This document shows positions 54,196 through 64,000 of a stretch of DNA of 64,000 bases, piece by piece (position 1 is the first letter of the stretch; each line of letters opens with the position of its first letter). The notes beneath the pieces are model-generated. The model was not told the DNA's origin and did not search any database. It saw only the letters and a list, made by a program, of their open reading frames with translations. The stretch comes from Vicingaceae bacterium. Lineage in GTDB: Bacteria > Bacteroidota > Bacteroidia > Flavobacteriales_E > Vicingaceae. The position numbers were made by a program, and so were the translations under genes. The stretch covers positions 27,503-91,502 of the forward strand of contig CBDDFS010000003.1 in assembly GCA_965227255.1 (NCBI GenBank), given 5' to 3'.

Positions 54196-54326
54196 AGAAC
54201 GAGATTATCTCGCTGCGCTCGATGGGCCCAAAAAGTAGCCCTGGCCAATCTATCCGAAGCCTCTTCGCTTCGCGAAGCGGTCTTTTTCTTTTTCATATCG
54301 AGTGCGAGCAAGCTCGACTCTCATTC

Positions 54327-54360
54327 AAAATAAAAAAGCCCCTCACTTTCGTGAGAGGCT
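54327..54360 (-). terminator. Rho-independent terminator ending the leftward island cassette
   Basis: The minus strand reads agcctctcac-gaaa-gtgaggggct, a 10-bp stem with one G-U pair. It is followed by tttttatttt. Confidence 0.8.
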
Positions 54361-54458
54361 TCTCCTTGTTGCGGTCTGGACGGAACCTTTTTTTAAATTT
54401 TTGCAACCTTTACCAATGCTTTGCCAGAGGCCGAAACCCCCAAATTTTTAGGACGCAT

Positions 54459-54959
54459 TTAGGACTTTGGCGGGGGCTTTTCTTCGTTGTTTGACGAGTG
54501 CTTATTAACAATGCGCAGCACCCGACTGAGTGAATAAACCAAAACCACATAGATCCCAATAAAAGATCGAAAGGAAAGATCCAGATAATAACAAAGGGCA
54601 AAACTCAGACCCAACAGCGAAAAAGACATGATGGCGATAAACAGGATCAAAAACAGGCTGTTTTTATTCTCGTCGTCATTTTTCTCCAAGATCTCATTTC
54701 TTGTCAGATAAGTCTGATGTGCCTTATGGGATAAAAGAAGATCCAGAAGATAAGAGCCAAAGGAAAGTACCAGGGTAAAGAGAATCGCCACCTCAAAGGG
54801 CCAAACCAGGAAAGACTCATGATTGAGAAAATACAAACTCAAGTACCACACCGGCCCAACGGTCAAGATATAGATGATGATCTGATGGACCGGGGTGTCT
54901 AAATTTCTTACGTCGTCTAAAACACCCACCTTAGTCTTCTTTTTTGGCGATCTTCTCAA
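54459..54959 (-). CDS. Island membrane protein C (4 predicted TM helices), unknown function
   Basis: The ORF has a TTG start at 54959. An alternative GTG at 54929 lies 1 nt after the upstream stop. There are four hydrophobic helices and no recognisable motif. Confidence 0.6.
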   Translation of the reverse strand: MRRSPKKKTKVGVLDDVRNLDTPVHQIIIYILTVGPVWYLSLYFLNHESFLVWPFEVAILFTLVLSFGSYLLDLLLSHKAHQTYLTRNEILEKNDDENKNSLFLILFIAIMSFSLLGLSFALCYYLDLSFRSFIGIYVVLVYSLSRVLRIVNKHSSNNEEKPPPKS

Positions 54960-55584
54960 GGCGCTTTTGAGCCTTGAGCTGCATTTCTTTCAAATGAGCC
55001 ATTTCCATGAGCGCCTGATGCAGTTCACCCTCGCCCTGGTCCAGCTCGCTGGAAGCGATCATCAAATTGTGAATCGCCTGGTCGGTGGCTTTGTTGATGG
55101 CCGGAAACTGATCGTTCAGAATCGTTTCTGAGATCCGATGATTCTGGGATTCTTTCTTGATCACCTGGCGGATCATGCGGTAATAAGAGCCGTATTTCAG
55201 AAAATCCCAGACCGCCCAAAAGCCGCCGCCAATGAAAAGCACATAGCCCGCTCCTTCAAAGAAATTCCAGGCGCCAGGATCCATCCACACCCCCAGCATC
55301 AAAAAAACGCCCCAATACAAGGCCAGGATCGATGCGCCCACCAGGATCGAGGCAGATCTTCTATGCGCGCTTGACAGCACCAACACCACCACGCCATAAT
55401 AGATCAGATTGGCATAGATGCTAAAGGAATAAAGCGAAGCGCTGGCATCGGTGTAATAATCTTTCACCAGGGGCTCAATCCAAGCGCAAAGCCACTGGGA
55501 CTGATACCAGGTGGTGGTAAAAGCCAAAAAAAGGCCGATGTAGATCAGCCTTTTCAAGAGTCTCTCCTGGATGAATTCGGTCAT
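54931..55584 (-). CDS. Island membrane protein B (4 TM helices plus a C-terminal coiled-coil-like tail), unknown function
   Basis: 217 aa. ATGA overlap with the upstream gene. The hydrophobic core is followed by a charged helical tail (ELHQALMEMAHLKEMQLKAQKRLEKIAKKED). Confidence 0.65.
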   Translation of the reverse strand: MTEFIQERLLKRLIYIGLFLAFTTTWYQSQWLCAWIEPLVKDYYTDASASLYSFSIYANLIYYGVVVLVLSSAHRRSASILVGASILALYWGVFLMLGVWMDPGAWNFFEGAGYVLFIGGGFWAVWDFLKYGSYYRMIRQVIKKESQNHRISETILNDQFPAINKATDQAIHNLMIASSELDQGEGELHQALMEMAHLKEMQLKAQKRLEKIAKKED

Positions 55585-55871
55585 GATCCGTTGGGTCTTT
55601 TGATCTCCTTGGGCACCCCGCCATCGTTGTACTCGCGGATGATGTTGGAGCCCTGCCTTTTGTCCAGAGCGCTGAATCCAACTCCTTCAAAAAGCACTTC
55701 ATCAATTTGTGAAGCATCCACCCCTGCGTTCATCTTATCACATACCGTTTCTCCCGGTTTGGGCCACTGTTCTTGGGTACCACCAGTATAAGTTATTGTC
55801 AATAAGGTTACAAGAGAACAGTCACCGCTCGCTTTGTTTTTAAACCAAGGTTCGTATTCTGATTCTGTCAT
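55581..55871 (-). CDS. Island small soluble protein A (96 aa), unknown function
   Basis: First gene of the leftward cassette. Its stop overlaps the next start (ATGA). Confidence 0.55.
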   Translation of the reverse strand: MTESEYEPWFKNKASGDCSLVTLLTITYTGGTQEQWPKPGETVCDKMNAGVDASQIDEVLFEGVGFSALDKRQGSNIIREYNDGGVPKEIKRPNGS

Positions 55872-62639: not shown

Positions 62640-62641
62640 AC

Positions 62642-63073
62642 ATGACTATGGAAACAACGAGAGGAAATCTTCGCCTTAAAGCAGCCGCATCGCTTGTGGA
62701 AACAGGGGTGATCTATACTTCAAAAGAGCTCCAAAAAAAGGTAAAAGCCAGGGATTTTAAAGCGCGATTCGAGAAGGTCAAAAAACGTGAATACCGATTC
62801 ATCGAGCCGCCGGTCCATCCGGATCCAAGCTGGCCAGAATCTTCTCAGGCTCTCCGGTTTCGACTTGAGAGAGAGATCAAGAAATTCCACTATATATCCT
62901 ATTCCCCAGCAAGAAAAGAGCGAGGATTGAAGATGGCTCTTTGTAGGGAAGAAAAGCTCTGGCTGAAAGAAATATCAGAAAACATCAAGATCCTGGAAAA
63001 AGAAATCGAACGCCTGGAAAATTCAGAAGAGAAGCTGATCTATTTGATGGACCAAAAACGATTTGCATCATGA
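62642..63073 (+). CDS. Hypothetical island protein
   Basis: 143-aa ORF with a coiled-coil C-terminus. Tight spacing to its neighbours. Confidence 0.5.
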   Translation: MTMETTRGNLRLKAAASLVETGVIYTSKELQKKVKARDFKARFEKVKKREYRFIEPPVHPDPSWPESSQALRFRLEREIKKFHYISYSPARKERGLKMALCREEKLWLKEISENIKILEKEIERLENSEEKLIYLMDQKRFAS

Positions 63074-63402
63074 CAGACACAAGTAAAGCGGAAGAGTATT
63101 TAGACAAAGTAACTCTCACGCTAGATGAAATTAGAGATTTAGCATGCTTGCCGTGGCCGACTGGTCACGATTTTGGATATAAGTATGTTAAAAGAGAGGA
63201 TATTGACCGACTATTGACCGACTTCGCAGAACAAGAGATCAACCAACTTGAATTAGATAAGCGCAGCATAAAAAATGCGGCTGAGAAGGAAGTCAAGGAA
63301 TTGAGGGGGTTACTTATAGAATGGTCATCAACAGACTTTGACGAAGTCGACTCTGAATACATAGAAGATTTATTGAAAAGAACTAAAACCCTAAAACCAT
63401 GA
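63070..63402 (+). CDS. Hypothetical island protein (lower-GC module)
   Basis: 110-aa ORF with ATGA overlaps on both sides. Confidence 0.5.
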   Translation: MTDTSKAEEYLDKVTLTLDEIRDLACLPWPTGHDFGYKYVKREDIDRLLTDFAEQEINQLELDKRSIKNAAEKEVKELRGLLIEWSSTDFDEVDSEYIEDLLKRTKTLKP

Positions 63403-63908
63403 GCGAAGAAGAGCGATGTAAATGCGGAAACGCATTAACCAAAGTAAATAAAGGTGCAGGAGAACCTGTGGAATACACATACTGCAAGGCTTGTGATAAT
63501 GAGATTGCAGAATTAAAAGCGAGGCAGTGTCCAGCAACTTTTGGAGACTATAAATGCCATGTTGATACGAACGTCAAAGACTCAAAAGGTCGAACGGTAA
63601 GCGTTGATAAATGCCTGAAAGATATAGTTGAGTATTTGAACAAGGGAGGTTTAAGAACGGTAGCGAGTTGCGGAGGTCATAACCAGGTTCAGCCTATTAT
63701 ATCAATTGAGTTGGATCAAATAGCAATGGAAAGGTATTTCCGTAAGAGAGTCGAATCTATAACGGATGAAGAGATAGAAGAGATGTTTACAGAAGAAGTG
63801 GCAAGACATCCATTTGGAAGTATAAGTTCTATTCCCTCATACGGAAAGCAGAAAAACCACGCTGCAATCGAAGGAGCAAAAGCATTTAAACAACAATTAC
63901 TGAAATGA
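63399..63908 (+). CDS. Hypothetical Cys-rich (zinc-ribbon-like) protein
   Basis: 169 aa. CKCG...CKACD pairs near the N-terminus. Confidence 0.5.
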   Translation: MSEEERCKCGNALTKVNKGAGEPVEYTYCKACDNEIAELKARQCPATFGDYKCHVDTNVKDSKGRTVSVDKCLKDIVEYLNKGGLRTVASCGGHNQVQPIISIELDQIAMERYFRKRVESITDEEIEEMFTEEVARHPFGSISSIPSYGKQKNHAAIEGAKAFKQQLLK

Positions 63909-64000
63909 ACGCAGAAGAGTTTTTCAAACACCACCAAAGAGCAGAGAATATTTACGGAGAAGAGCTTATAAATTATTTTGTTGTCACAGCGCAAGATATT
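63905..64000 (+). CDS. Partial ORF running off the window (MNAEEFFKHHQRAENIYGEELINYFVVTAQDI...)
   Basis: ATGA overlap with the preceding stop. The frame stays open to the window end. Confidence 0.4.
   Translation, partial: MNAEEFFKHHQRAENIYGEELINYFVVTAQDI

Follow-up and report, generated by a model that had tools for sequence, protein, structure and literature searches.

The right end of a 64,000-nt stretch of the Vicingaceae bacterium genome (the window; positions 27503-91502 of contig C3, CBDDFS010000003.1) raises the question of what kind of mobile element begins there. An earlier note described positions 54197-64000 as a higher-GC, phage- or satellite-like island with repressor and replication genes, and drew attention to the absence of an integrase next to the repressor, where a cassette of three outward-reading genes was found instead. 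The explanations offered were a prophage with its integrase at the far end, a satellite built around a primase-helicase, or a decayed remnant. Our analysis favors the first. We conclude with high confidence that the window holds one arm of a full-length temperate tailed prophage, which is integrated at the 3´ end of the sole tRNA-Asp(GTC) gene and has its integrase at the far end; this confidence applies to identity and boundaries only, with inducibility and the role of the cassette outside it.

A tRNA-derived repeat bounds the element

The next 36.5 kb of the contig were fetched, corresponding to extrapolated window positions 64001-84000 (L001) and 84001-100498 (L002); all coordinates above 64000 are of this kind and lie beyond the window's right edge. 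This rightward extension, which the earlier note had recommended, yielded structural genes, an integrase and a matching attachment (att) core (Table 1). Allowing up to one mismatch, only two copies of the core GCGGTCTGGACGG are found in the 3.23-Mb genome, both at the ends of the element, with no third copy between them. Core to core, the element measures 39,539 bp, ~30 kb of which is beyond the window. On the left, the element begins with the att core at 54371-54383 and not at 54197, as first proposed, and position 64000 is a mere window edge rather than an end of the element. The part within the window (54371-64000) is the left quarter of the prophage, its lysogeny-control and replication arm.

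The tRNA-Asp(GTC) gene is the sole tRNA-Asp among the 35 tRNA genes identified by ARAGORN across the whole assembly (97.6% completeness), and was the only match in an Rfam scan. Given a single tRNA-Asp gene in the assembly, the host therefore depends on the 3´ end rebuilt by the phage. Neither an integrase gene nor a tRNA gene was found in the window part of the element, which bears out the earlier observation that the repressor-proximal end lacks an integrase. The accompanying remark that no tRNA target is visible holds for a complete gene only: because the far end is now known, the 13-bp tRNA-Asp fragment at 54371 can be recognized as a target visible inside the window.

The integrase is full length, lies 38 kb to the right, next to tRNA-Asp, and is the only one found in the element. 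All three of its domains score over the Pfam cut-offs (PF00589, E 5.8e-21; PF13102, E 7e-17; PF17293, E 8.5e-11). Short repeats of the TTAGGACG type just inside both cores are candidate arm-type sites for an integrase with such an arm-binding domain. Exact TTAGGACG occurs three times in the 80.5 kb examined, each copy no more than 110 bp from a core; there is one copy in the 64-kb window, and 3 of the 17 copies in the 3.23-Mb genome fall within ~240 bp near the cores.

Composition sets the element apart from the host

The att-bounded element has a GC content of 0.448, against a mean of 0.405 +/- 0.0076 (sd) in 578 equally long windows from elsewhere in the genome (z = 5.7), none of which exceeds 0.4226; the genome as a whole, 3.23 Mb in seven contigs, is at 0.406. 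Its tetranucleotide L1 distance is 0.231, which is 1.8 times that of any other window (mean 0.063, maximum 0.129). The compositional break described in the earlier note is real and significant, and the full primase-helicase is carried by 0 of 24 same-family genomes searched, so the island stands as such on both counts.

The form of the break differs from the first description. Positions 54197-64000 have a GC content of 0.458, a value reached by only 0.2% of same-size genome windows, but the rise after 54.2 kb is smaller and patchier than the 50-53% reported, with 0.41-0.43 at 54.2-55.0 kb and peaks of 0.50-0.56. GC at third codon positions (GC3) is 0.53-0.66 in most left-arm genes versus 0.37-0.43 in the host flank, and the raised GC continues past the window edge to ~C3:119-120 kb. 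The absence of host heptamer arrays, also listed as evidence, is uninformative (0 seen, 2.0 expected).

Two segments inside this otherwise higher-GC phage have a host-like composition. One is the gene for the Dam methylase (GC 0.398, GC3 0.41), the other an accessory module from 62642 to ~68.3 kb with GC host-like or lower, the start of which matches the drop noted earlier from ~63 kb. Such a patchwork points to exchange with other phages that infect low-GC hosts. It is also the only feature that would suit a non-phage genomic island or integrative element with phage-like genes, or native DNA of odd composition. Such an origin is hardly credible, given phage hallmark genes in phage order, att repeats at a tRNA end with an adjacent integrase, and a primase-helicase absent from all 24 same-family genomes; conjugation genes, moreover, did not turn up among the proteins scanned.

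Structural genes between the cores

We read the element as a full prophage because genes for TerL, a portal, an S49 head protease, a capsid-like protein and a tape measure protein lie between the cores (Table 1). TerL is 33% identical to that of Polaribacter phage Leef_1 over 96% of its length and also matches the annotated TerL of Microcystis phages. The portal gave a weak match in PHROGs, and the 374-aa capsid candidate matched nothing in Pfam, PHROGs or a phage database.

These genes bear directly on whether the element could be a satellite of the kind represented by phage-inducible chromosomal islands (PICIs) or P4, organized around the primase-helicase and sitting at the tRNA site either by itself or next to a helper prophage in tandem. 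The window part alone would fit that description, with regulators and replication genes and no structural genes, and the C-terminal helicase fold does resemble that of the SaPI5 primase-helicase. However, a single att pair spans 39.5 kb and encloses TerL, portal, protease, capsid-like and tape measure genes, which places the element outside the range of satellites (~7-18 kb, without capsid, terminase and tail genes of their own). Isolated phages also have the same large primase at the same position, and its closest homologues are on contigs of 38-46 kb. We consider a satellite very improbable; a tandem of satellite and prophage was rejected, as a third core copy is lacking and one integrase was found.

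Table 1. Features of the element and its junctions (coordinates above 64000 are extrapolated window coordinates)
Feature	Position	Strand	Remarks
Intrinsic terminator, 15-pair stem and T run	54365 to 54332	-	Host side, 5 nt outside attL core
attL core GCGGTCTGGACGG	54371-54383	.	Identical to last 13 nt of tRNA-Asp gene
Candidate arm-type sites, left: TTAGGACG cat TTAGGACT	54448-54466	+	65-83 bp inside attL
Cassette gene 3, 156-166 aa	54459-54959	-	4 predicted membrane helices
Cassette gene 2, 217 aa	54931-55584	-	Hydrophobic N-terminal half, charged helical tail
Cassette gene 1, 96 aa, soluble	55581-55871	-	Stop overlaps gene 2 start (ATGA)
Candidate lysogeny repressor, 126 aa	56450-56830	-	N-terminal XRE/Cro-C1-type helix-turn-helix (HTH), long C-terminal helix
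Divergent control region, 98-bp spacer	56831-56928	.	Nested inverted repeats; candidate operators and promoters
First gene of rightward early operon, Cro position, 104 aa	56929-57243	+	Placed by position alone
Early gene, 156 aa	57224-57694	+	No match in Pfam, PHROGs, PADLOC
DUF4406 protein, nucleoside 2-deoxyribosyltransferase-like	57691-58011	+	PF14359 E 6.8e-23; phrog_355 E 1.4e-27
Putative open reading frame (ORF), 43 codons, one hydrophobic helix	58008-58139	+	ATGA-coupled to DUF4406
D12-class N6-adenine DNA methyltransferase (Dam)	58149-59042	+	PF02086 E 2.6e-23, 83.5 bits; phrog_56 E 4.7e-57
Early gene, 210 aa	59020-59652	+	No match in Pfam, PHROGs, PADLOC
Replication protein, 996 aa	59649-62639	+	Zinc ribbon, DnaG-type Toprim primase, D5-like superfamily 3 (SF3) helicase
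Lower-GC accessory module, start	62642-64000	+	143, 110 and 169 aa; 73-aa gene crossing window edge
YopX	64880-65317		PF09643
S49 head protease	70933-72060		PF01343 E 1.6e-19; phrog_53 E 4.2e-53
Capsid-position gene, 374 aa	72349-73473		Follows S49 protease; weak similarity to same-position genes
Two glycosyltransferase family 2 (GT2)-like genes, 243 and 248 aa	74873-76347		First: weak Glycos_transf_2; second: phrog_7999 (unknown function)
TerL	77727-79220		phrog_2 E 4.4e-15
Portal	79791-81188		Directly after TerL; 38% identity over 404 aa, E 4e-85, to annotated Leef_1 portal
Open frame, ~340 aa	~81190-82210		After portal
DUF5675 protein among small ORFs	82719-83237		phrog_1501
Neck-like gene	85132-85536		phrog_5
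Tape measure, 805 aa	85536-87953		phrog_27166 E 2e-55
Four short tail-end genes	after 87953
Integrase, 382 aa	92647-93795	-	Arm-DNA-bind_5, Phage_int_SAM_5, Phage_integrase domains; 115 bp inside attR core
Candidate arm-type sites, right: two exact TTAGGACG and TCAGGACG (1 mismatch)	93804-93862	+	48-106 bp inside attR
Second hairpin terminator	93875-93899	.	10 nt inside attR, directly behind tRNA-Asp
attR core GCGGTCTGGACGG	93910-93922 (C3:121412)	.	3´ end of tRNA-Asp gene; 13-bp direct repeat with attL
tRNA-Asp(GTC)	93910-93984 (C3:121412-121486)	-	Same strand as integrase, 115 bp beyond int start codon

An intact-looking prophage or a cryptic one

Several observations weigh against an intact prophage with these boundaries. 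The att core is short (13 bp), and the capsid candidate was assigned from its position together with identities of only 22-26% to the protease-adjacent genes of Leef_1 and of Cellulophaga phage Ingeline_1. The Pfam and PHROGs scans gave no positive identification of an endolysin, holin, excisionase, small terminase or distal tail protein, and no element protein scanned matched a named lysin family. The genes after the tape measure gene are shorter than those of Leef_1 and Ingeline_1. Joined attB/attP junctions gave 0 matches in exact-pattern scans of genome, viral and metagenome contig collections, a result that does not equal absence, since a single-nucleotide polymorphism would mask a match. 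In the nearest relative (DEAD-box helicase 66% identical), the left-flank gene and tRNA-Asp are on separate contigs; therefore, the flanks are not syntenic.

Some of these points would also be expected of a cryptic defective prophage, one with the same origin and boundaries that has lost excision, replication or particle building through defects in tail, lysis or excision functions. Its case draws on the lysis genes, excisionase, small terminase and distal tail proteins that were not identified, on short genes after the tape measure gene interrupted by a minus-strand ORF, and on the failure of the exact-junction scans to find free-phage or empty-site sequence in public collections. Against it, no broken frames or large non-coding gaps were seen across the ORFs of the element, the cores are perfect and the arm sites intact at both ends, the integrase retains its full length and all three domains, and the composition shows no drift toward the host. 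Missing annotations are also normal for flavophages, in which most genes have no assigned function. We judge a cryptic prophage to be unlikely.

The decayed remnant that the earlier note had considered finds no support: every ORF is open, and neither the cores nor the arm sites are damaged. The prophage is ordinary and intact-looking, nothing marks it as a remnant, and it was probably acquired recently.

The attachment site separates integrase and repressor

When the ends are joined, the order on the minus strand is repressor (56830 to 56450), cassette (55871 to 54459), arm sites, attP core, arm sites and int (93795 to 92647). The integrase is far from the repressor in the prophage because the attachment site lies between the two genes, and this position of attP explains the puzzling layout. 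In the excised circle, the repressor, cassette, attP and integrase would form a continuous lysogeny module on one strand. The integrase would bind the arm sites on either side of attP, with strand exchange taking place within the 13 bp common with the tRNA, and because attP lies upstream of int, integration would leave int at the right-hand end of the prophage, with the repressor at the left.

The junctions are consistent with such an event. The strong terminator reported at the left end exists, as a hairpin that is the strongest terminator-like site within 53.6-57.3 kb, but it sits on the host side of the att core rather than within the element. We infer that it is the original terminator of tRNA-Asp, which would have remained at attL and would now halt cassette transcription running leftward out of the prophage. 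At the other end, the 13 bp carried by the phage would restore tRNA-Asp, and the inner hairpin at 93875-93899, presumably phage-borne, would end the rebuilt tRNA transcript and shield int from read-through.

In the lysogen, the XRE-type repressor would act on the dyads at 56831-56928 to keep the divergent early promoter silent. Upon induction, the rightward operon would yield the Cro-position and DUF4406 proteins, the Dam-like methylase and, to initiate replication of the phage, the DnaG-primase/SF3-helicase. The cassette would most likely be cargo expressed in the lysogen, acting at the membrane in superinfection exclusion or defense, and would occupy a slot that is variable between relatives.

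We also noted a hairpin-plus-T-run unit (CGCTTCGYGAAGCG...) that occurs twice on the host side of attL, at 54144-54176 and 54264-54296, with a spacing of 120 nt. Its palindrome has no further copy in the 3.23-Mb genome, and the second unit includes the 7 nt with which the att core begins (GCGGTCT). Possible readings of the two units are terminators or the scars of earlier integrations at tRNA-Asp.

Regulatory and early genes of the left arm

The organization described earlier for the left arm was largely recovered. Seven ATGA start/stop overlaps were located, at 55581-55584, 57691, 58008, 59649, 63070, 63399 and 63905, in keeping with short overlapping genes. The divergent pair of HTH proteins was retained in part. 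For the leftward partner, the candidate repressor, the HTH assignment is weakly supported: the match to Pfam HTH_26 (18 bits, E 0.0036) is under the 22-bit cut-off, while a single-sequence model has a predicted local distance difference test score (pLDDT) of ~90 over residues 10-60, and its best fold matches are all XRE-family HTH proteins (among them SinR, HipB, a phage 186 regulator and P22 C2), mutually consistent although their E-values are no better than 0.02-0.5. For the rightward partner, the 104-aa protein at the Cro position, searches of Pfam, PHROGs and PDB sequences turned up no HTH, and PADLOC gave no match either. The operator dyads proposed for the 98-bp spacer are present as inverted repeats with 13-nt arms (56858-56870 and 56905-56917) plus two 9-nt pairs.

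Between the cassette and the repressor there is a plus-strand ORF of 116 codons (56103-56453) that overlaps the stop of the repressor gene by 4 nt. Given a phage-like GC3 of 0.59, it may be a real convergent gene.

Both the DUF4406 gene and the Dam methylase named in the earlier note are present, with clear Pfam matches. The DUF4406 protein is 40% identical to the product of the same-position gene on a metagenomic phage contig (L021). The Dam protein carries a DPPY motif and also fits the MTase_II and orphan-MTase models. Its neighbors (43 aa and 210 aa) fit no nuclease family in Pfam, PHROGs or PADLOC, and from its sequence Dam appears to be an orphan D12-class adenine methyltransferase.

The 996-aa primase-helicase

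The three-part architecture proposed for the 996-aa protein holds. The zinc ribbon matches PF01807 (E 1.2e-14). Across 27 homologues, invariant residues include the cysteines C39/C42/C59/C62 of the zinc ribbon, E254 and D305/D307 of the Toprim domain, and, in the helicase half, G733-K734-S735 (Walker A), D777-D778 (Walker B) and T820-N821 (SF3 motif C). The C-terminal half has no Pfam match, and PF12965 and PF19263 are recorded for some homologues. Foldseek searches with an alignment-based model (pLDDT 85.3) returned Aquifex DnaG (2au3, E 3.8e-11) and the SaPI5 primase-helicase (7ola, E 2e-9), as well as monkeypox virus (MPXV) E5, vaccinia D5, African swine fever virus (ASFV) PrimPol and NrS-1 at E 1e-9 to 1e-7. 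Conserved residues and the predicted fold identify the protein as a fusion of a DnaG-type primase with a D5-like SF3 helicase.

At least 707 proteins from Bacteroidota and phages, 42-50% identical, belong to its family. Matches in the 24 same-family genomes covered only the zinc-ribbon region, within open frames about as long as DnaG, apart from one case of a partial C-terminal stretch. A viral contig collection searched with the primase gave no close relative; the closest primase-helicases are on contigs of 38-46 kb, which is phage size, and the primase of gut phage contig MT835542 is 38% identical.

A leftward cassette between attL and the repressor

A hydropathy scan gave two helices over threshold for cassette protein 2 and four for protein 3. 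None of the three proteins had a match in Pfam, PHROGs or PADLOC. Searches of 5.8 billion clusters returned only self-matches for proteins 2 and 3, and an HMMER scan of 1.84 billion representatives gave a single marginal match, to protein 2 (E 1.4e-4). By these searches, the cassette is without a convincing homologue and is the only real unknown of the element.

The slot between the att site and the repressor varies among relatives, holding a 41-codon ORF in an Aureivirga marina prophage and a SNIPE/T5orf172 nuclease with other genes in metagenomic contig L022. In phage lambda, rexAB and sieB are exclusion or defense genes expressed in the lysogen. By analogy with these genes, and because the cassette lies on the same strand downstream of the repressor and beside the att site, it can be read as lysogen-expressed cargo. 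We tentatively suggest an undescribed module for membrane-acting superinfection exclusion or abortive infection, a reading that is possible but doubtful. It is weakened by the fact that the proposed role rests on position and membrane topology, with PADLOC, Pfam and PHROGs silent.

Other genes of the element

The two GT2-like genes sit inside the head and packaging module, which is unusual within a structural operon, and might modify the capsid or surface polysaccharide. By eye, the N-terminus of a 253-aa ORF at 66485-67246 resembles these genes; it has no match in Pfam or PHROGs. A small ORF (86 aa) near the DUF5675 gene has a membrane-spanning look by eye. Most tail-end ORFs had no match in PADLOC, Pfam or PHROGs. 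Among these plus-strand genes, a minus-strand ORF of 166 aa (89188-89688), also without a family match, is a second candidate cargo gene.

The value of these assignments is mostly one of annotation, in that a complete temperate phage is placed in a marine Flavobacteriales-type genome, with its att core, candidate arm sites and target, the sole tRNA-Asp gene, now defined. In this widespread Bacteroidota phage lineage, represented by the at least 707 primase-helicase homologues, int and the repressor are often at opposite prophage ends; prophage finders and readers who expect the two to be adjacent will therefore truncate such elements or take their left arms for satellites. The short core with clear arm repeats offers a workable model for a Bacteroidota integrase with an arm-binding domain, and the homologue-less cassette is a reasonable candidate for screens of prophage-encoded defense.

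Comparison with known phages and prophages

The closest isolate is Leef_1 (Helgolandviridae, Leefvirus; MT732473 / NC_062750), a 37.5-kb flavophage of the siphovirus type that encodes an integrase. Its genes follow the order seen here: head protease, capsid-like gene, TerL, portal, neck, tape measure, int on the minus strand, a DNA-binding protein on the minus strand, early genes on the plus strand and, last, a large primase/Toprim protein of 951 aa. Only 12 of the 66 ORFs of the element are matched, at 25-38% identity, and most ORFs are unshared. The primase matches over residues 480-940 only (28%), the integrase matches just 80 aa of the second annotated integrase gene of Leef_1 (gp38), and a LuxR gene and large BACON-domain tail proteins of Leef_1 are both missing here.

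Full-length homologues of the integrase are found in two other phages, Ingeline_1 and Flavobacterium psychrophilum phage FPSV-F7 (Duneviridae), which are 32% and 35% identical, respectively. In both, as here, int on the minus strand directly follows the tail genes and precedes small genes and an HTH regulator, and both have the S49 protease, to which Ingeline_1 adds a large primase. In the record of FPSV-F7, int comes last, which puts the early genes and int at opposite record ends. No obvious tRNA-like attP was present in the intergenic DNA beside int in Ingeline_1 and FPSV-F7. These phages differ from the element in having much longer tape measure and tail genes and hosts of other genera, and share 7 of 66 (Ingeline_1) and 5 of 66 (FPSV-F7) ORFs. 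Common to all three isolates is the order tail, int (-), small genes, HTH (-), early genes (+) and large primase, with ORF identities of 22-38% throughout. Leef_1 and Ingeline_1 have been termed potentially temperate (PMC8776804).

Prophages with a homologous primase provide a direct replicate of the layout. The Aureivirga marina prophage (GCA_015767265.1, JADPIB010000001.1, ~35.0-79.3 kb) has a primase-helicase that is 46% identical over its full length. A 16-bp repeat (TCCTATCGCGATCACA) corresponding to the 3´ end of tRNA-Arg(TCT) recurs 44.3 kb away. The integrase, 35% identical and the only homologue in that genome, adjoins the intact tRNA in the same reading direction, and a repressor-like gene and the early operon, with the primase, are at the opposite end, as here. 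The Aureivirga prophage likewise has its own, different short motif repeated just inside both cores. It differs in its target (tRNA-Arg(TCT) and not tRNA-Asp), in its GC content of 0.264, in sharing only 6 of 66 ORFs, in having the 41-codon ORF alone where the element has its three-gene cassette, and in an HNH and AAA_15/AAA_21 pair after the primase (L024:13369-15403, minus strand). In two Aquimarina prophages, host genes are followed by a repressor-like gene with no integrase at that end. The layout is thus not abnormal for this lineage, contrary to what the earlier note had supposed. In a Thalassobellus prophage, by contrast, the integrase is beside the repressor; both placements of attP therefore occur in the lineage. 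The repressor-like proteins of these relatives are 10-19% identical to the candidate here and align poorly, so their equivalence is one of position rather than demonstrated homology.

The closest sequence of any kind is the metagenomic phage contig SRR22452305_1678 (39,886 bp; L021), of which 22.9 kb were read, with 10 ORFs matched. Of the primase-helicases found, the one on this contig is the nearest (49% identical) and lies in the same DUF4406, Dam, primase order; its protease, neck-like gene and tape measure are 37%, 48% and 32% identical. It differs in carrying an RVT_1 reverse transcriptase and a tRNA-Met, neither of which is found here, and no integrase was seen in the 22.9 kb read.

Relatives also carry accessory genes of their own. 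A 319-aa RVT_1 reverse transcriptase followed by a ~98-aa gene is found in the replication region of the contig (L021:7859-9104) and of a Muricauda prophage (L023:16449-17691), and this pair may be a retron-like module or one resembling diversity-generating retroelements that is accessory to the lineage. Minus-strand, defense-like cargo is represented by the HNH and AAA_15/AAA_21 pair of the Aureivirga prophage, by SLFN_AlbA_2 and 8xMP genes in Aquimarina W85 (L031:15929-20535) and by a minus-strand block of SNIPE/T5orf172 and DUF6161 genes at L022:232-7623. The lineage appears to hold several cargo slots.

The likeness to SaPI5 and other PICIs concerns the D5-like SF3 fold of the helicase half (PDB 7OLA). 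The N-terminal primase here is DnaG-type, with a zinc ribbon and Toprim domain and Aquifex DnaG as its top fold match, unlike that of SaPI5, and SaPI5 is a ~15-kb satellite without structural genes, whereas the element possesses them. We regard the element as a new and fairly remote addition to the known group of temperate siphovirus-type phages of Bacteroidota.

Tyrosine integrases of the lambda type that target tRNA genes use arm-type plus core-type sites. The element resembles these systems in the N-terminal arm-binding domain of its integrase and in the repeated arm motifs around a short core, as well as in a core that coincides with the 3´ end of a tRNA, which would be rebuilt on integration. 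It departs from lambda in its arrangement: int of the lambda prophage is at the end nearer the immunity region, whereas here int and the repressor are at opposite ends.

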